From an uncultured Actinomycetota bacterium (GTDB lineage: Bacteria; Actinomycetota; Actinomycetes; JAHEKZ01), in contig CAVSDB010000001.1 in NCBI GenBank assembly GCA_963726755.1, positions 1,341,225 to 1,405,224 of the forward strand: DNA of 64,000 nt. The letters are read 5' to 3'. Both the position numbers and the translations under genes were made by a program. Each line of letters starts with the position of its first letter. The first letter of the stretch is position 1. Below, piece by piece: positions 15,591 to 60,302 of the stretch. The notes beneath the pieces are model-generated. The model saw only the letters and a program-made list of their open reading frames with translations. It did not search any database and was not told where the DNA came from.

Positions 15591-15624
15591 GCTCGGGGCC
15601 ACACCGTGTGGTGTGCCCCCGAGC
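15591..15624 (-). terminator. hairpin terminator downstream of pilA copy 1
   Basis: GCTCGGGGCCACACC/GGTGTGCCCCCGAGC near-perfect stem. No strong U-tract (an I-shaped terminator, common in actinobacteria). Confidence 0.4.
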
Positions 15625-15663
15625 CAGTTGCATCTGATTCACCCTGGGTAGTACAATGGGTGA

Positions 15664-16077
15664 TCAGTTGTTCACGCAAACGCCGCCGGCAGCCTGGAGG
15701 CCACCGTCGTTGCTGTCGTAGATCCAGTTGGCCTGCGAACCAGGCTGCGCACCGGCGATACGAGTGATGGTCACGCAGTAAGACGAACCGATGGTCGAAA
15801 CGGCCACCGCTGCGTTGTTACCTGGCGAAAGCTTGACTGCAGCAGGAACCGCAGCCGGGTAGGTCTGAGTGTCAGTGAACGCAGTTTCCATCTCGTTGGC
15901 CACCGCGCGAGCGTCAGCCTTCATCGATGCGTCAACAGCCTTCTGACGCTGGTTCAAGAACACCGGGATAGCAATAGCAGCAAGAATACCGATGATGATA
16001 ACGACGACCAGGAGCTCGATGAGGGTGAAGCCTTCCTCATTCTCGTCCATGGCCTTACGGATGCGAGCGAGCATCAT
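15664..16077 (-). CDS. pilA: type IV major pilin PilA, copy 1
   Basis: Track ORF 15664..16128 trimmed to the MM start with GAAGGGA ribosome-binding site. MMLARIRKAMDENEEGFTLIELLVVVIIIGILAAIAIPVF is a canonical type IVa prepilin leader plus N-methyl-Phe helix. Confidence 0.85.
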   Translation of the reverse strand: MMLARIRKAMDENEEGFTLIELLVVVIIIGILAAIAIPVFLNQRQKAVDASMKADARAVANEMETAFTDTQTYPAAVPAAVKLSPGNNAAVAVSTIGSSYCVTITRIAGAQPGSQANWIYDSNDGGLQAAGGVCVNN

Positions 16078-16317
16078 TTGTCCCTTCAGGACGTAACGGT
16101 GAGCCGTACGGCGCTCGCCCTGGACCACCCCTAAGGGCTGACCGAGGTAGCTGGGCTAACCACATGGGTCCCCTGGCTTTGCGAACCCGCCTCACGACGG
16201 GAGTGCCTTGTCTGGCCGGTTGGCTCTTTACAAGTACTGTTTCGACCCCCCACATACCCGTCTTGAGCCACGATGATCACAGACTTCACCGGCGAGTTCC
16301 ACCGCTGACAACAAGCA

Positions 16318-16351
16318 GACTCGGGGCCACACCGTGTGGTGTGACCCCGAG
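16318..16351 (-). terminator. hairpin terminator downstream of pilA copy 2
   Basis: ACTCGGGGCCACACC/GGTGTGACCCCGAGT, paralogous to the copy-1 hairpin. Confidence 0.4.
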
Positions 16352-16395
16352 TCCTGCTAGTGATAATGCGATCAGATGATCTGGTGATCAGCCGA

Positions 16396-16809
16396 TCAGT
16401 TGTTCACGCAGACCCCGCCGGCAGCCTGGAGGCCACCGTCGTTGCTGTCGTAGATCCAGTTGGCCTGCGAACCAGGCTGCGCACCGGCGATACGAGTGAT
16501 GGTCACGCAGTAAGACGAACCGATCGTCGAAACGGCCACCACTGCCTTGTTACCTGGCGAAAGCTTGACCGCAGCAGGAACCGCAGCCGGGTAGGTCTGA
16601 GTGTCAGTGAACGCAGTTTCCATCTCGTTGGCCACCGCGCGAGCGTCAGCCTTCATCGATGCGTCAACAGCCTTCTGACGCTGGTTCAAGAACACCGGGA
16701 TAGCAATAGCAGCAAGAATACCGATGATGATAACGACGACCAGGAGCTCGATGAGGGTGAAGCCTTCCTCATTCTCGTCCATGGCCTTGCGGATGCGAGC
16801 GAGCATCAT
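16396..16809 (-). CDS. pilA: type IV major pilin PilA, copy 2 (one amino-acid difference from copy 1)
   Basis: Track ORF 16396..16860. Identical 154-aa translation except SPGNNAAVAV vs SPGNKAVVAV. Confidence 0.85.
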   Translation of the reverse strand: MMLARIRKAMDENEEGFTLIELLVVVIIIGILAAIAIPVFLNQRQKAVDASMKADARAVANEMETAFTDTQTYPAAVPAAVKLSPGNKAVVAVSTIGSSYCVTITRIAGAQPGSQANWIYDSNDGGLQAAGGVCVNN

Positions 16810-17270
16810 TTGTCCCTTCAGGACGTAACGGTGAGCCGTACGGCGCTCGCCCTGGACCACCCCTAAGGGCTGACCGAGGTAGCTGGGCTAACCACTGGGT
16901 CCCCTGGCTTTGCGAACCCGCCTCACGACGGGAGTGCCTTGTCTGGCCGGTTGGCTCTTTACAAGTACTGTTTCGACCCCCCACATACCCGTCTTGAGCC
17001 ACGATGATCACGACTTGGCATCACACCCAGACGGCCCAACGTCCAGTGGCGCCTTCAAGAGCCGGCGTGCTCTGCGCGCTCCTTGATCCCATGGAACGTC
17101 CCGCGAGCCATGACAGATCGGCGGGGATGATGGCCATGAGCTGCGCAGCGAGTTCGTGTGGGGATCCACCTCACGACGGTGAAGAAGGCAGTCCCGGCCC
17201 AAATGGCTTCGGGGCTGGTGTCGATGGTGATCGCAGGGTTAGTCGCGACCTGCGGACAGGCTTCCCCTGA

Positions 17271-30044: not shown

Positions 30045-30511
30045 GACTGCCCCTCTGCCTCGGGGGGCACTGATTCCCCAACAGCCGTGCCCTTCGCAGA
30101 ACGTGCATCCAAAGCTGACTGCAAGATCACTACTGCCGCCACCTGGTCAACCACTTGACGACTGCTTCGACTACTTCGACCAGCCTCTTGTAACTGACGC
30201 GTCGCCGACACTGTCGTCATCCGCTCGTCGAGAAGACAAACGGGGATGCTGGTGGCGCTCGCCAGCCGAATGGCGAAACTTCGACTGCGCTGCGCGGCCG
30301 AGCCTTCTTCACCGGAAAGTGATCGGGGTAAGCCGACCACGATGAGCACCACGTCGCGCTCGCTCGCTAGCCCAACGAGCGTCTGGATCGCCGCTTTGTC
30401 AGAGTTGATCGTCTCGACGGGCACCGCCAGCACGCCTTGGGGATCGCTGATGGCGACACCGATCCTGACCTCGCCAGGGTCAACACCCAGCCATACGCCG
30501 GAACCGGTCAC
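30041..30511 (-). CDS. ruvX: Holliday-junction resolvase-like RuvX/YqgF
   Basis: Track ORF, 156 aa. [18 protein letters not shown]-terminus. Conserved position between mltG and alaS. Confidence 0.8.
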
Positions 30512-33189
30512 TGTTGCCCTGACGCCGAGTTGCCCAACGCGGTCTGCGCTGCCGCAAGAGCGGACTCGACACCGGACGGATCGCTACCGCCGCCTTGGGC
30601 AACGTCCGCCTTTCCGCCGCCCCGACCGCTGACTGCGGGGAGCGCTGACGCGAGAACGTCTTTGGCGAGCACACCTTGAGCCTGGCCCTGATCGTTGACC
30701 GCGGCCACCATCGCGACCTTGCCATCACTTACCGCAGCACCGAGTACGACGACCGGTTGCTCGCCGTCGCCGCGTCCTCGAATCTGCAGCACTAGTTCGC
30801 GGAGGTGATCCGCAGCGACGTCGTCAGGTGCTCGGAACCCGAAGTACCGGATGTTGTCGACCAGCACTCCTGGACCGGCGACGTCACCCACCGACGCCGA
30901 CATCTGTTCTTTGCGCGCGCGTTCGATCTCCTTCTCGGCGTCACGCAGTCGCTGCACCAACGACGCTACCCGGTCGGGGAGTTCGTCGGCCGGTGCCTTG
31001 AGTTGTTCGGTGAGCAGATGCACAAGGGTGTGCTCACGAGCGAGGTAGCGGTAGGCGTCGATCCCCACGAGCGCTTCGATGCGTCGCACACCCGCCCCGA
31101 TCGATGATTCGGCAAGCAGTTTGACGACGCCGAGTTGCCCGGTGCGACCTGCGTGAGTGCCACCGCAAAGTTCACGCGTCCAGTCACCGACACTGACGAC
31201 CCGAACCACGTCGCCATACTTCTCACCGAAGAGTGCCATCGCGCCGGACGCACGGGCTTCGTCGATGGGCATCAGTTCAGCCTCGACGCTGAGGTCGTCA
31301 ACCAGGATCTCGTTGACCCGCTGCTCGACGTCGGCAAGCACTGTCTTGGGGACGGCTCCCGCGTTGGGGAAGTCGAAGCGGAACCGACCAGGCGCATTCT
31401 CAGAACCTGCCTGCGTAGCCGTGTCGCCGAGCAACTCTCGCATCGCCTTATGAACCATGTGAGTCGCAGTGTGCGCGCGAGAAATGGCACGACGGCGTTC
31501 TACGTCAACCTCGCCGATCGCGGCCAGCCCGGTGTTGATCTCACCGTCAATAACTCGAGCACGGTGGACGTAGAGTCCCTCGACAGGTTGCTGCACGTCG
31601 TCAACCTCAAGGGTGGCGCCGTTGCTTAGGGTGACGAGGCCGGCGTCTGCGAGCTGACCGCCACCCTCAGCGTAGAACGGTGTGCGGTCGAGAACGAGTT
31701 CGACCTCGTCGCCAGCTGTAGCTGCGGGAACCACTCCGCCGTCGCGAAGGATGCCTTTGACGATGCCCTCGGAACGCAATTCGGTGTAGCCGGTGAAGTC
31801 GGTGCGGCCAGCGACGTCCGCGAGTTCGCGATACGCGGCAACGTCGACGTGCCCAGACTTCTTCGCGCGGGAATCGGCCTTTGCGCGCTCGCGCTGCTCA
31901 GCCATCAGCCGACGGAAACCGTCTTGGTCGACCTCGAGTCCTTGCTCAGCGGCCATCTCGAGCGTGAGATCAATCGGGAATCCGTAGGTGTCGTGCAGTT
32001 TGAACGCTGCGTCGCCGCCAAGGCGGGTTTCTCCGGACTGCTTGGCGCCAACCGCCGCGAGATCGAAGATCTGTGTGCCGGCCTTGAGGGTCTGCAGGAA
32101 CGAGGCTTCCTCGGCTTCGGCGACTGTGTGAATGCGCGCACGTTCAAGTTCTAGTTCGGGGTACTGAGGTCCCATTGCCTCGATCGACGCCGACACCAGT
32201 TCGCGCATCGTCTCGTCGGGACCGCCGATGAGACGCATGGATCGGATGACTCGTCGCATGATGCGGCGCAGCACGTAGCCGCGACCCTCGTTGCCCGGGA
32301 CGACCTGATCGCCGATCAACATGACGGCAGTGCGAGCGTGATCAGCGACGACTCGGTAGCGCACGTCGTTGTCATGGTCGACGCCGTATGGCTTGCCAGT
32401 CAGGGCGACCGCGCGATCGAGAATGTGGCGCGTCGTGTCGATCTCGTAGAGGTTGTCGACGCCCTGCAACACCGTGGCCACTCGTTCCAAGCCCATGCCG
32501 GTATCGATGTTCTTAGCAGGAAGTTCGCCAACGACGTCGAAGTCCTCCTTGGTGCGGACCTCTCCTAGTGATTCCTGCATGAAGACTAAGTTCCAGATCT
32601 CCATGTAACGCTCTTCGTCGGCGATCGGGCCACCTTCGGCACCGTACTTGGGACCGCGGTCGTAATAGATCTCCGAGCAAGGTCCGCCTGGGCCAGCAAC
32701 GCCCATGTGCCAATAGTTATCGCTGTAACCGCGACGCTGAATGCGTTCCAGGGGAACGCCCACGTCGCGGTGCCAGATGTCGACGGCCTCGTCATCGGTA
32801 TCGAAGACCGTCACCCAAAGCCGGTCAGGGTCAAGCCCATAGCCGCCGTCTGTTGTCGGCATCGTTACCAGTTCCCACGCGAAGGGGATGGCGCCCTCTT
32901 TGAAGTAGTCGCCGAACGAGAAGTTGCCTGCCATTTGGAAGAACGACGCGTGCCGCGCTGTCTTGCCGACCTCTTCGATGTCAAGAGTCCGGACACACTT
33001 TTGGACGCTGACCGCGCGCGGGAACGGAGGCGTTTGCTCACCGAGAAAGTACGGCTTGAAGGGCACCATTCCGGCGTTCACAAGCAGCAACGTGGGATCA
33101 GGCAGCGGGAGGGGCGCCGATGGCACGACCGAGTGCCCACGCTCCTCGAAGAAGCGCAAGAATCTGCTACGAATCTCGGCCGACTGCAT
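30508..33189 (-). CDS. alaS: alanine--tRNA ligase
   Basis: Track ORF 30508..33240 trimmed to [19 protein letters not shown]. Length and [13 protein letters not shown] motifs. Confidence 0.95.
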
Positions 33190-33294
33190 GGGTGATGACT
33201 CCTCGTTGGGTGCCTCTGGCAGTGGCCAGGGCGGTCCCATCAGCCTATCGAAGGACCGTGGCTGTCCTCGGTACCTACGTCGCGCCGTCGAAGG

Positions 33295-34644
33295 TCAGGA
33301 GTCTTCGTCGGCCGTCAGATGCTGTCGAAGTCGAGCCACTCGCTCGGTGAGTTCGCGCTCGTAGCCATGATTCGACGGCTCGTAGTAGTGACGTCCGACG
33401 AGCTGATCCGGCGCGTACTGCTGGGCCACGACCCCCAGCTCGTCGTCGTGGGGATATCGATACGTCGTGCCATGACCCAGGGACTCGGCGCCGCGGTAGT
33501 GCGCGTCGCGCAGGTGCGCCGGGACAGGTCCAGCGCGACCGGCACGCACATCTGCCAACGCCGAATCAATCGCCACGATGATCGCGTTGGACTTCGGCGC
33601 CGTCGCGAGGTGGACGACTGCCTGTGCCAACGGGATCCGCGCCTCGGGCAGTCCAACGAACTGCGAGGCATGAAGCGCCGCGACGGCCGACTGCAGCGCG
33701 GTTGGGTCGGCCATCCCGATGTCCTCGCTGGCGTGGATGACCAACCGTCTCGCGATGAATCGTGGGTCCTCGCCGGCTTCGACCATGCGCGCGAGGTAGT
33801 GCAATGCAGCGTCCACGTCGCTGCCGCGGATGCTCTTGATGAACGCGCTGGCAACGTCGTAGTGCTGGTCACCTTGCCGGTCGTAGCGCACCGACGCCCG
33901 ATCGACGGCCTCGGCGACCATCTCAACGTCGATGACCGCGCCGTCGACGTCCCGGCCGGCGGCGACGGCTTCGATCGCGGTTAGTGCGCGTCGGGCGTCC
34001 CCGCCAGAGAATCGCACGATGGCCGCACGCGCCTCGTCGTCGAGGGTGACGCGTCCACCGAGGCCGCGTTCGTCGGTGATCGCACGGTCGATCAGCTGTT
34101 CGATCGCGGCGTCGTCGAGCGTGCGTAGGGTGAGGAGCAACGAACGCGATAGCAGCGGCGACACGATCGCGAAGTGCGGATTCTCGGTTGTGGCTGCGAT
34201 GAGAGTGACCCAGCCATTTTCGACCGCGGGCAGCAGCGCGTCCTGCTGGGTCTTAGAGAACCTGTGGACCTCGTCCACGAACAGGACAGTCTCTGAGTCG
34301 CCGGTCGCCAGTCGTCGCCGGGCAGAGTCGATCACCTGTCGGACGTCCTTGACACCAGCCGTCACCGCGGAGAGTTCGACGAAACGTCGACCACCGGCGT
34401 AGCTGACGAGGTGAGCCAGCGTCGTCTTTCCGGTACCAGGTGGTCCCCAGAGGATGACTGAGACAGCTCCCCCGCTCTGGCCGTCCGCGCTGGCGTCGAC
34501 CAGCCTGCGTAACGGACCGCCGGGGCCGAGCAGGTGGTCCTGGCCGACCACCTCGTCCAGCGTGCGAGGTCTCATCCGTACCGCGAGCGGTCCGCCGACG
34601 ACGTCTTCAGCAGCCGCATCGAACAGGTCCGGTTCGTTCACCAC
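33295..34644 (-). CDS. rarA: replication-associated recombination protein A (AAA+ ATPase RarA/MgsA)
   Basis: Track ORF, 449 aa. Walker [12 protein letters not shown] and sensor motifs. Confidence 0.85.
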
Positions 34645-34717
34645 GCCCTCACCCTAGGTCCGCCCTTCCCAACGCCCCCAACGCAACCTCCAACCCCCAA
34701 GAGCCAGAACCAGAATC

Positions 34718-35057
34718 CTAAGAACGACGCGTTCTCCCACACTGGTGCAACAAACTCCGCATTCATCCTGTGGATCCCGCGGCATCCACAGGAACCGTGA
34801 GGTGTGGATGTAGGACGTTCGCACCACGATGCGCTGACTTGGCCAGGGCGCACTGTCGCTTCCGGCCAGGTTCGCAGCCGCCCACCGCGTCAATGGTGTC
34901 CGCTCACTGTCACTGCCTCGAACACGACGCCTCCTCGCGCTGAGGCGGCAAGTCGTCCGCGCCCGAGCGGAGCCTGACTGACCTTGTGGATCCCGCGGGA
35001 TCCACAGGATGAATACGGAGTTTGTTGCACCAGTGTGGGAGAACGCGTCGTTCTTAG
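34718..35057. mobile_element. MITE-like element: two ~75-bp terminal inverted repeats flanking a ~190-bp core
   Basis: Arm A 34718..34792 and arm B 34983..35057 are reverse complements with ~3 mismatches. Each arm carries an internal palindrome GTGGATCCCGCGGGATCCAC. Possible TA flanks. Lies in the rarA-aspS intergenic region. Confidence 0.4.
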
Positions 35058-35088
35058 AATTTTGTTCTCAGGCTTCTGGGTGTTGGGT

Positions 35089-36849
35089 TCAGGTTTTGCG
35101 GGTTTCGGGTTTTGGTGGTGTGGGGTCGATGCCGGCTTCGGCTCGTTGGGCCGCAGTGATCGGCGTCGGGGCTCCGGTCAAGGGGTCGCCGCCCGAGGCG
35201 GTCTTGGGGAACGCGATGACCTCACGAATCGACTCCGCTCCACCGAGCAACGCGACGAGTCGGTCAAGCCCGAAGGCGATCCCACCATGTGGCGGGGGGC
35301 CGTACTTGAACGCTTCGAGCAGGAATCCGAACTTGCTCTCGGCTTCTTCTTCAGAGAAACCGATCACATCGAATACTCGACGCTGTACGTCTGACCGGTG
35401 GATACGAATCGAGCCGCCACCGATCTCGTTCCCGTTCAGCACCATGTCGTACGCAAACCCGAGGGCCTCCGCCGGTGACTTATCGAACGACTCGAGCCAG
35501 TCAGTGTGCGGTGACGTGAACATGTGGTGGACAGCAGTCCAGCCACCCTCACCGTCGGCCTCGAACAACGGCGCGTCAACGATCCATAGAAACGCCCACT
35601 GCGACTCGTCGATCAAATCGCAGCGTTGACCGATCTCGAGTCGAGCAGCACCCAATAGAGGCAGCGCTTCGGACCGCTCCCCGGCAGCAAAGAACACCGC
35701 ATCCCCAGGGGTGGCGCCAACCGCGGAAGCTAACCCATCGCGCTCCGCATCGGACAGGTTCTTCGCCACCGGACCACTCAGTGAGCCGTCTGGCTGCAGC
35801 AGGACGTACGCCAACCCACGTGCACCCCGAGCCTTCGCCCAGTCCTGCCAACCATCGAGTTCCTTGCGGGACTGGCTGGCTCCCCCTGGCATGACCACCG
35901 CGCCGACGTGCCACGAGTCTGACTGCCGCTGAAACACCCGGAACGTCGTCTCGGCGAAGTAGTCGGTCAACTCAACCAGTTCGCAGTCGAACCGGACGTC
36001 GGGCTTGTCCGAGCCGTAACGCTTCATCGCCTCCGCGTACGTCAACTGCGGCAGCGGCAGAGGGACCTCGTACGCATGGATGTCGCGCCACAACGCGGCG
36101 ACGATCTCTTCACCAAGCGTCAGTACGTCAGCCTGCTCGACGAACGACATCTCGATGTCTAGCTGTGTGAACTCCGGCTGCCGATCCGCACGAAAGTCCT
36201 CGTCACGAAAACAGCGCGCGATCTGGTAATAGCGCTCCATGCCCGCGACCATCAGCAGTTGCTTGAACAACTGCGGCGACTGCGGCAGCGCGTACCAAGA
36301 ACCTGGCTGCAGGCGTACTGGGACCAGAAAGTCGCGCGCACCCTCGGGCGTTGACCGCGTCAGGTACGGAGTCTCGATCTCTAGGAAGTCGTGCTCGTCC
36401 ATGACGTCGCGAATCACCTTGGTCGCCCGTGCCCGCAATCGGATCAAGCGACCAGGCTCTTCACGACGCAGATCGAGGTAGCGATGCCGCAACCGCGCGT
36501 CTTCGCCAACGGTTAGATGCTCGTCGATCGGGAACGGGAGTGGCGCGGCCTCTGACAGCACTTCGACCTCAGAGACGATGACCTCGACGCCGCCACTCGG
36601 CAACTCCGGATTCTCGTTACCCGCCGGGCGTTCGACAACTTCTCCGACGACTTTCAGGCAGTACTCACTACGCAGGTCGCCAGCAACCGCCGAGTCGCGG
36701 ATCACCACCTGCGCCACACCTGAGGAGTCGCGCAGATCCAAGAACGCCACCCCACCGTGGTCGCGACGACGCGCAATCCACCCAGCCAGGACCACCTGCT
36801 CGCCCGCATCTGCGGTGCGCAGCGTCCCAGCCCCTCGGGTGCGGATCAC
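35089..36849 (-). CDS. aspS: aspartate--tRNA ligase
   Basis: Track ORF, 586 aa. Class II aaRS motifs ([26 protein letters not shown]). Confidence 0.95.
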
Positions 36850-38107
36850 GACAGTCGTCCCTTCAACGTGGCAACTAACTCGGTCAACTTCACCGGCTGC
36901 TGGTCACCAGACTCCATCTCTTTGACTCCGGCGACGCCGTCAGCCATGTCACGCTCCCCCAGTACGACGGTGTACCGCGCGCCAGAGCGGTCCGCCGACT
37001 TCATTGCGCCCTTGAGTCCCTTGCCTCCGTACTCGAGGTCGGCGCGCACTCCAGCTTGACGCAACTCCGCGAGCAGTTTGACCAAGTACGTCTTCGCTTC
37101 GTCACCCAGCGGCACCAAGAACACCTCGACGCGCGCCGCCGACCCCGGCTCGACTTCCTCCGCGACACACGCCAGCAACGTGCGATCGACTCCCAGACCA
37201 AAGCCAATGCCAGGAAGTGATTGACCGCCCAACATTTCAAGCAACCCGTCGTACCGACCGCCGCCACCGATCGCGGACTGCGCCCCGAGCCCGTCGTGCG
37301 CGAACTCGAAGAGCGTGCGCGTGTAGTAGTCGAGGCCCCGGACCAAGCGCGGTTCGTCTTCCCAGGTGACGCCAAGCAGTCGCAGGTACTCCTTGAGCGA
37401 ATCGTGATGTGCCTGGCACGCCTCACATAAGTGGTCTGAGATAAGCGGTGCGTCGACGAGTTGCGCCTGCACCTCAGGACGCTTGTCGTCAAGCACACGC
37501 AACGGGTTCACGGCCGCGCGCTCGCGCGTTGGCTCGTCCAGGTCCAACGTCGCCAGGAACTCCTGCAGCACGCGCACGATACGCGGGACGGCACTCAGCG
37601 CAGCCCAGCGAGTTAAGCAGTAACCGAACGCGACTCAATCCGAGCGCCCGATACGACGTCCACGCCAGCCAGATGACCTCGGCATCGATGGCCGGGTCTG
37701 ACGATCCGACGGTCTCGACACCGACCTGCGTGTGCTGTCGGTAGCGACCAGACTGTGGCCGTTCGTACCGGAAGTTGGGGCCGGTGTACCAGACCTTGAC
37801 CGGCAGTTGGCCCGCGGTCGAGCCCGTTCTCCGCGATGGCCCGCAACACTCCAGCCGTGCCTTCGGGACGAAGGGTCAACGATCGCCCACCGCGATCCTC
37901 GAAGGTGTACATCTCTTTGGTGACGACGTCCGTGGACTCTCCGACGCCTCGGACGAAGAGCGCGGTGTCCTCGAACATCGGGGTGTCGATGAATCCGTAG
38001 CCAGCCGAACGAGGGGGCGCAGACAGTGCCTCACGCACGGCAAGCCAGGAAGCAGACTGCGGCGGGACGACGTCGTACGTTCCCTTAGGCGCGCGAAATA
38101 CCGTCAC
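36846..38107 (-). pseudogene. hisS: histidine--tRNA ligase; 2 frameshifts near 37825 and 37580
   Basis: N-terminus in ORF 37613..38107 ([13 protein letters not shown]...[11 protein letters not shown]). Middle ([34 protein letters not shown]) in another frame. C-terminus in ORF 36846..37577. Confidence 0.8.
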
Positions 38108-38112
38108 GGCAC

Positions 38113-38844
38113 CTACAACCCCCGCCCGCGAGCTTGACTGGGAGTCGGCTCGGCGAGGAATGGGTTGCTCGCTCGCTCACGTCCGATCGTCGTCGCTTCT
38201 CCATGCCCCGGAAGCACCAACGTGTCGTCGGACAGTGGGAGCACCTTGCTCGCTAGTGACTGCAGCATCTGCTCGTGCGATCCACCGGGCAGATCGGTTC
38301 GCCCGATCGATCCCGCAAACAGCACATCACCGGACAACAAGGTCTGCGTCGGCTGCTGGTCCAGACCATTCGCACCGTCTGGCGCCCCGGGTAGCCGGAA
38401 CATCACCGACCCAGGGGTGTGTCCGGGCGCGTGGTCGACTTCGATCCGCAGACCGGCCATCTCTAATGGCTCTTCACCGATCAGGCGGACGTCGTCAGGC
38501 TCAACCCAGGTCAGTCGCCCGCCGAACATTGCCGCCGTCTCGGGGCTGATCCCCTTCATCGGGTCGGCGAGCAACTCGCGGTCCCCCGGGTGGATGTAGG
38601 CGGGCAAACCTCGGGCCGTCCCGACCGGGCACCACCGAGAACGTGTGATCAATGTGCCCGTGCGTCAACAACACCGCCACGGGCTCAAGGCGGTGCTCTC
38701 GAAGCAGGGCAGTCCACACCGTCGGCCACTTCGATACCGGGGTCGACCACGATGCACTGTTCCCCAGCAGCTGGGGCCACGACGTAGACGTTGGTCCCGA
38801 ACGCCACCGAGGGGAAGCCAGCGATCAGCACGTGGATCAGCCTC
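38113..38844 (-). pseudogene. MBL-fold metallo-hydrolase (hydroxyacylglutathione hydrolase-like); 2 frameshifts
   Basis: C-terminus in ORF 38113..38652, middle (LLTHGHIDHTFS) in ORF 38501..38719, N-terminus (GTG with AGGAGG; LIAGFPSVAFGTNVYVVAP) at ~38720-38844. Confidence 0.6.
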
Positions 38845-60200: not shown

Positions 60201-60219
60201 CCGCAGTTATTTCTTCGGA

Positions 60220-60265
60220 GTTGCTAGACGGGGCGGGCGCTATAGCGCCCGCCCCGTCTAGCAAC
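60220..60265. terminator. bidirectional hairpin terminator, 21-bp perfect stem with TATA loop
   Basis: GTTGCTAGACGGGGCGGGCGC-TATA-GCGCCCGCCCCGTCTAGCAAC. Lies between convergent genes ending at 60200 (+) and 60303 (-). Confidence 0.6.
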
Positions 60266-60302
60266 TGCTCTAGTTAATGGAATGTGTGGGTGTTGAACGA
60301 CC

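Follow-up and report, generated by a model that had tools for sequence, protein, structure and literature searches.

Between aspS and rarA in the genome of an uncultured actinomycete lies a long inverted repeat with a noncoding center. Is it a mobile element that landed in the spacer, or a structure that formed from DNA already resident there? An earlier note on this DNA leaned toward the former, reading the inverted arms as a MITE-like element and the TA at their ends as compatible with a target duplication of the IS630/Tc1 type. We addressed the question in the window (the whole 64-kb stretch of DNA that was analysed), in public sequence collections and at the orthologous locus of related contigs.

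A long inverted repeat separates aspS from rarA

The genes around the repeat run on the minus strand in the order hisS, aspS, the element, rarA/mgsA and alaS (30508-33240), and both immediate neighbors are intact and collinear with those of relatives (Table 1). The aspS stop codon occupies 35089-35091, and rarA probably starts at the second GVG (34641), given that the matching protein (P0001) is one residue shorter than the open reading frame; a purine-rich sequence (GGGTGAGGG) lies just upstream of this start. The two genes are 444 nt apart in this genome, with ~45 nt, the ribosome-binding region of rarA included, between the left end of the repeat and the rarA start. The closest relatives in the databases are only ~86% identical in RarA or AspS. 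Upstream of aspS, hisS is called as two minus-strand open reading frames within 36846-38107, one with the N-terminal part of the tRNA-synt_His domain (37613-38107) and the other with its C-terminal part and the anticodon-binding domain (36846-37577); relatives have one gene of ~420-454 amino acids. The split is probably an indel error of the long-read assembly, or else a frameshift. The Lactamase_B gene beside it (38113-38652) looks truncated. ARAGORN called a tRNA-Phe (GAA) on the minus strand at 35311-35383, inside the aspS coding region; the Rfam tRNA model was silent there at its gathering threshold, and the call is probably a false positive.

The spacer holds a single inverted repeat of ~397 bp (34690-35086), the only long one in the window, with an inner element of 340 bp (34718-35057). 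Repeat finding across the window delimited arms of 92 nt (34711-34802 and 34973-35064) that are 90% complementary and 170 nt apart. By BLAST and direct comparison, the inner blocks of these arms are complementary at 71 of 73 positions, with mismatches at 34760/35015 and 34783/34992, and include a stretch of 39 nt identical in both (AGAACGACGCGTTCTCCCACACTGGTGCAACAAACTCCG) for which shuffled sequences give an expectation of 0 matches. The near-complementary arms around a noncoding core described in the earlier note are thus real and were correctly placed between the two genes. A gapped alignment lengthens the repeat by 28 nt at both ends (to 34690 and 35086), with ~75% complementarity and two indels, a score reached by only 2 of 500 dinucleotide shuffles. 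Continuation beyond these points, into the coding tail of aspS, was not significant and was discarded; the AspS tail (KPET...) is like the tails of relatives. No direct repeat flanks the outer ends.

Each arm contains two palindromes. The inner one, of 20-24 nt, reads (C/T)TGTGGATCCCGCGG(C/G)ATCCACAG and is laid out over 22-24 nt as TGTGGATCC-CGCG-GGATCCACA; it had been noted before as a 20-mer, to which the left copy has one mismatch. The other is small, AGAACG-NNN-CGTTCT, and sits at the outer end of the arm, where the sequence reads, as previously reported, cTA/AGAACG... on one side and ...CGTTCT/TAg on the other. The terminal sequence of the element is AGAACGACGCGTTCTCCC. The core measures 170-194 nt depending on the arm boundaries chosen and is not palindromic: its score against its own reverse complement was no better than that of shuffles, and a degenerate continuation of the palindrome was rejected. 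The codon-position G+C of the core (0.58/0.72/0.73) departs by only ~2 SD from a flat profile in a rough estimate over 57 codons, and we did not count it as a sign of coding origin. Overall G+C is 60.5% in the element and 55-56% in the arms, against 62.7% in the window.

The half-site of the inner palindrome, ATCCACA/TGTGGAT, occurs at 34769, 34784, 34803, 34985 and 35000, and once elsewhere in the window. It is identical to the final 7 bases of the DnaA box in its classical form (TTATCCACA), a likeness at the level of sequence; the counterpart in one related contig (L004, ~664-672), TTATCCCCA, matches the box at 8 of 9 positions. The copies carry little statistical weight because they arise from the repeat itself. 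The arm motif GAAC-N5-GTTC was rejected as a LexA/SOS box for its spacing, the Gram-positive and actinobacterial box being GAAC-N4-GTTC. Past the aspS stop and a second TGA seven codons on (35070-35068), the aspS frame stays open on the minus strand for ~137 codons (35067-34657), across the whole element. By a rough base-composition estimate this has a probability of ~10% by chance for one of six frames; the translation is arginine-rich and without a protein homolog.

Two other repeats of the window deserve mention. A perfect 48-nt palindrome with the halves AGTTGCTAGACGGGGCGGGCGCTA and TAGCGCCCGCCCCGTCTAGCAACT lies at 60219-60266 in an AT-richer stretch, with a TGA ~20 nt upstream, and is a possible bidirectional terminator. 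A tandem duplication at 15592-17011 (period ~732 nt, 98-100% identity) holds two minus-strand genes (15664-16128 and 16396-16860). Each unit encodes a protein of 154 aa whose N-terminus (FTLIELLVVVIIIGILAAIAIP) is type IV pilin-like, and each gene is preceded by a c-di-GMP-I riboswitch (16143-16217 and 16875-16948) that passes the Rfam gathering score.

Table 1. Coordinates of the inverted repeat, its parts and the two flanking genes in the window.
Feature	Position	Strand or place	Remarks
rarA/mgsA, downstream gene	33295-34644	minus	Pfam MgsA_C, AAA_assoc_2, AAA; 100% identical to P0001 (448 aa)
Left outer repeat part	34690-34717	no strand	C/A-rich TTCTGG-type short repeat, ~75% complementary to 35058-35086 with indels
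Left inner arm, rarA-proximal	34718-34790	no strand	Homologous to the single-copy aspS-rarA spacer of L004 and L012
Left small palindrome, AGAACG-ACG-CGTTCT	34721-34735	outer end of left arm	Motif GAACGNNNCGTTC twice in the window, in the arms only
Left inner palindrome, CTGTGGATCCCGCGGCATCCACAG	34768-34791	no strand	
Unique core, 170 nt, 67.6% G+C	34803-34972	no strand	No homolog (nhmmer, BLAST, Rfam, protein searches)
Right inner palindrome, TTGTGGATCCCGCGGGATCCACAG	34984-35007	no strand	
Right inner arm, aspS-proximal	34985-35057	no strand	Inverted copy of the left arm
Right small palindrome, AGAACG-CGT-CGTTCT	35040-35054	outer end of right arm	TAGAATTTTGT next on the plus strand, terminator-like per scan
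Right outer repeat part	35058-35086	no strand	Ends two bases from the aspS stop codon (3' of the stop in the minus-strand sense)
aspS, aspartate-tRNA ligase, upstream gene	35089-36849	minus	Pfam tRNA-synt_2, OB-fold anticodon-binding domain, GAD; 100% identical to P0121

One copy in the sequences searched

Neither the arm nor the core has another copy in the 64-kb window by BLAST (word size 7) or nhmmer (--max). The arm 20-mer TTCTCCCACACTGGTGCAAC had 0 exact matches in the genomes of 185,579 species (one each) and 0 in viral contigs, where the palindrome GTGGATCCCGCGGGATCCAC had 0 exact matches as well. A second arm 20-mer, ATGAATRCGGAGTTTGTTGC, taken from the block conserved between the window and L004, matched exactly in one genome (an Alloprevotella MAG of 43% G+C) and four times in JGI metagenomes; all of these matches lie in unrelated sequence of 39-45% G+C, and we took them as chance rather than true copies. 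The GTDB species genomes and the metagenomes scanned do not include the source genome, and L004 was likewise not recovered from the metagenomes. The element had no blastn match in PLSDB plasmids or INPHARED phages, and three of its sequence strings had no occurrence in the literature searched. On both strands of 33500-36500 Rfam returned nothing at E <= 1, and over the element nothing at the gathering thresholds of Rfam 15. The small open reading frames that cross the element had been dismissed earlier as artefacts, and we agree: the concatenated six-frame translation of the element matched nothing among 5.8 billion protein clusters at E <= 10. This result also means that no gene caller has called open reading frames over related copies. 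Within the source genome, single-copy status refers to the window, which is ~4% of ~1.5 Mb; a randomly spread family of ~25 copies would show no second copy in it roughly a third of the time.

Relatives carry a single arm or no spacer

We examined ten related contigs with the orthologous locus, eight of which show the whole aspS-rarA junction. In L001, L002, L011 and L014 the aspS stop codon overlaps the rarA start codon. A gap separates the two genes in L003 (5 nt), L013 (31 nt), L015 (64 nt), L004 (75 nt) and L012 (84 nt); L016 has the same sequence upstream of rarA as L015. Because the genes of relatives overlap or lie 5-84 nt apart, the 444-nt spacer is derived. Overlap in four of the eight readable junctions suggests translational coupling of aspS and rarA. 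The palindrome and the core are absent from the orthologous site in all ten contigs. One of the closest relatives, L010 (RarA 86% identical), is represented by a contig that ends 41 nt upstream of rarA (L010 1-41); a repeat or hairpin at that place too would lead one to expect such an assembly break.

Two of the relatives carry a single copy of the arm in this spacer. The L004 copy is oriented like the rarA-proximal arm and agrees with it at 47 of 56 positions, 21 of them in one identical block, and the L012 copy matches the same arm, ungapped and in the same orientation and position, at 35 of 48; neither score was reached by any of 2000 shuffles. The ancestral-type spacer of both contigs starts at or next to the aspS stop and extends to rarA, and in L012 the homology begins at the stop codon itself (the TGA of GGATGA). 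The RarA tree makes L004 sister to L003 (100% bootstrap), which has no spacer, joins the window to both and puts L012 in the other of its two clades. Because L004 and L012 belong to different clades and carry their single arm copy in the same place and orientation, the rarA-proximal arm is most likely native spacer. Its inverted copy, 97% identical, adjoins aspS. Between the two window arms there are 2 differences in 73 positions, against 9 in 56 between the window arm and its L004 ortholog; the second arm, or else the most recent homogenisation of the pair, is therefore much younger than the split from L004.

The search for an empty site in orthologous spacers, a check proposed in the earlier note, has a divided outcome: the full element is missing, and part of it is most likely resident sequence, to judge from the single arms of L004 and L012. 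The same note reasoned that an arm unique in the genome within a region conserved among relatives would argue for a regulatory palindrome instead of a mobile element. About half of that pattern was found, in that the arm is unique in the searched data and kept as a single copy in some relatives, and the whole palindrome is not conserved. An ATG in the rarA-proximal arm opens a small open reading frame (MNAEFVA..., 34767-34642, minus strand) of ~41 aa in the window and 23 aa in L004 (685-756); in both, its TGA overlaps the start of rarA. A conserved upstream open reading frame or leader peptide is improbable, since the L012 version stops after three codons.

Local duplication or insertion?

The foldback is real and confined to this lineage, belongs to a common general kind of structure and probably has a local origin. 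The specific reading we favor, to which we give an even chance, is a lineage-specific foldback of ~397 bp that arose when an inverted second copy of the native spacer formed around a unique core. A native aspS-rarA spacer of 50-60 nt would be the ancestral state, lost repeatedly where the genes came to overlap. The window lineage would then have gained the inverted second copy beyond the 170-nt core, now next to aspS, through intramolecular template switching at an older and weaker inverted repeat (the outer 28 nt, ~75%) that copied the spacer inward. Identity between the arms steps down exactly at the TA, from 97% inside to ~75% outside (2 mismatches in 73 positions versus 7 in 28; Fisher p = 0.0016), and this difference suggests two layers. 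The two tiers would exist because template switching extended an older weak repeat; the outer TTCTGG-type repeat is slippage-prone, and faster evolution alone may account for its lower identity. Removal of the inner element leaves CTAG at the center of a 28+28-nt imperfect palindrome, a pattern expected of a TA-targeting element that entered a pre-existing hairpin and equally of inward extension by template switching. The locus resembles quasi-palindromes made by template switching in its older imperfect 28-nt outer repeat, which flanks a younger near-perfect one of 73 nt with one arm native, and in a product that is lineage-specific and, as far as seen, single-copy. Classical events of this kind involve a few to tens of bases, whereas here 73 nt or more would have been copied, and template switching does not explain the origin of the 170-nt core. 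This unexplained core is missing from L004 and L012, in both of which aspS is followed directly by the arm, and it counts against the favored origin, as does the argument that the single arms of those two contigs are conceivably what remains of an old full element. Bolder still, and quite improbable in our judgement, is the notion that the locus captures the birth of a foldback element from native spacer, a 'proto-MITE' at copy number one with TA ends and no parent IS that already works as an RNA-level insulator of two housekeeping genes once coupled to each other.

A genuine MITE with 73-nt inverted repeats that entered the loop of an earlier intergenic hairpin, at the TA of a CTAG, and has more copies elsewhere in the source genome is in our view unlikely, though it is the alternative that we take most seriously. 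It would account for a small noncoding element (340 bp for the inner part and 397 bp in full, below the ~500 bp usual for MITEs) with terminal inverted repeats, for the lack of the full element at every orthologous site examined, and for arms that are poorer in G+C than the window. The step in identity at the TA boundary and the reconstructed CTAG target recall MITEs of the IS630/Tc1-mariner type, and with ~4% of the genome visible up to a few dozen copies would often leave no second one in the window. Prokaryotic MITEs typically give transcripts that fold as very stable hairpins, as this element would, but their inverted repeats are typically ~4-30 bp (PMC10969869), several times shorter than the 73-101 nt found here. 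AT-richness relative to the host is confined to the arms. No transposase gene lies next to the element, no parent IS is linked to it, and the window and the public collections searched yielded neither a second copy nor a protein-database trace of open reading frames over other copies. The TA target duplication proposed earlier is indistinguishable from the inverted repeat itself: the dinucleotide reads the same on both strands and the repeat extends 28 nt past it, so that it is not evidence of duplication. Moreover, the arm is homologous to a native single-copy spacer in two clades, a homology that a fresh foreign insertion would not show. What survives of the MITE reading is thus its anatomy and the absence of the full structure from relatives; mobility is unsupported, no second copy having appeared in anything searched. 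PATEs (IS200/IS605-derived) have subterminal hairpins at both ends without terminal inverted repeats or target duplication, whereas the 22-24 nt palindromes of this locus are embedded in inverted repeats of 73-101 nt. A retron or group II intron was rejected, there being no reverse transcriptase or other enzyme gene adjacent.

We consider it improbable that the repeat is an old selected palindrome, a structured RNA or protein-binding regulatory site of ancestral age that selection or gene conversion has maintained in this genome and of which L004 and L012 kept half and the other relatives nothing. This reading would explain why the arm can be aligned across lineages with RarA proteins 77-86% identical, with the blocks GATGA, AGTTT and GCGTCGTTCT invariant; why the window arms are 97% identical to each other when orthologous arms are 73-84% identical; and why the hairpin GAACG-CGU-CGUUC is largely kept in L012, where a C-to-U change gives a G-U pair. 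Such a history requires, however, at least two independent partial deletions that left the same arm, plus several full losses, and is less parsimonious than one gain. Most relatives have no spacer at all, no Rfam family matches at E <= 1, and the core is without a homolog, so that no covariation test is possible. Very improbable is an inverton, in which the 170-nt core would flip between the ~100-nt repeats through a trans-acting invertase or homologous recombination and so switch a promoter between rarA and the antisense strand of aspS. A short unique core enclosed by inverted repeats, immediately upstream of a gene, would suit such a switch, as would the outward -10-like hexamers at the arm edges (TAGGAT toward rarA, TAGAAT antisense to aspS), and Correia elements are reported to invert (PMC10969869). 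Yet the neighbors (hisS, aspS, rarA and alaS) include no recombinase gene, a scan of 34300-35400 returned no sigma-70-type promoter, a housekeeping operon is an unusual setting for phase variation, and only one orientation was available for inspection. Least probable of all is an assembly artefact such as a foldback chimera of long reads. The split hisS (36846-37577 and 37613-38107) and the split genes of the related long-read contigs L001 and L013 suggest indel errors in these assemblies. Foldback artefacts, however, normally duplicate long adjacent stretches, mostly at contig ends, and this repeat has imperfect arms around a unique core of 170 nt, which is not a duplicate of any neighboring sequence, and lies between flanking genes that are both intact and collinear with those of relatives.

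Predicted consequences for the transcript

Folding of either strand gave ~-245 kcal/mol, with z-scores of -15.5 (minus) and -21.4 (plus) relative to dinucleotide shuffles. A transcript that runs from aspS to rarA would form a stem of ~100 bp that, on the sense (minus) strand, is paired over a long stretch without a break. Long, perfectly paired RNA duplexes are classical substrates of RNase III, and such stems block 3' exonucleases and possibly RNA polymerase; stable hairpins at the 3' end protect the mRNA upstream. From its structure, and by analogy with Correia and ERIC elements, the stem would break the coupling of rarA, and of alaS downstream of it, to aspS and would stabilise the 3' end of aspS; rarA retains its own ribosome-binding region. 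The model predicts RNase III cleavage, termination and possibly a promoter at the element. The scan detected one small terminator-like hairpin only, on the plus strand at 35039-35055. Speculatively, a promoter could come from the -10-like TAGGAT that lies at the edge of the arm (34720-34715, minus strand); neither this hexamer nor TAGAAT is conserved in L004 or L012.

A parallel is offered by the Correia hairpin of Neisseria, which RNase III binds and cleaves at the inverted repeats and whose ends can create outward promoters (PMC2649163, PMC10969869). Correia elements (CREE) are MITEs that are transcribed together with adjacent genes. Like them, the structure is short and noncoding, has inverted repeats that end at TA, lies between or upstream of genes and would give a long-hairpin transcript; by this analogy it is expected to act on the aspS-rarA transcript as Correia does. 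The two have no sequence relationship and occur in different phyla. Correia repeats are ~26 bp and exist in tens to hundreds of copies per genome, whereas the arms here measure 73-101 nt, one copy is known and one arm is most likely native spacer DNA. The ERIC and REP-BIME sequences of enterobacteria are imperfect palindromes in transcribed operon spacers that change the stability of flanking mRNA (PMC10969869). The repeat described here is likewise an imperfect palindrome in an operon intergenic region, but ERIC and REP-BIME form many dispersed copies with a shared consensus, and no second copy of this one was found in the collections searched.

Conclusions

If the spacer is transcribed, the locus would be a natural experiment in which a very long double-stranded RNA stem stands between genes that in most relatives overlap or almost abut, in a small actinobacterial genome of ~1.5 Mb. 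Otherwise it would count as an ordinary rearrangement confined to this lineage. More generally, an anatomy like that of MITEs (inverted repeats, TA ends, a noncoding core and absence from relatives) can come from native spacer DNA, so that MITE calls made by sequence shape alone can be wrong.
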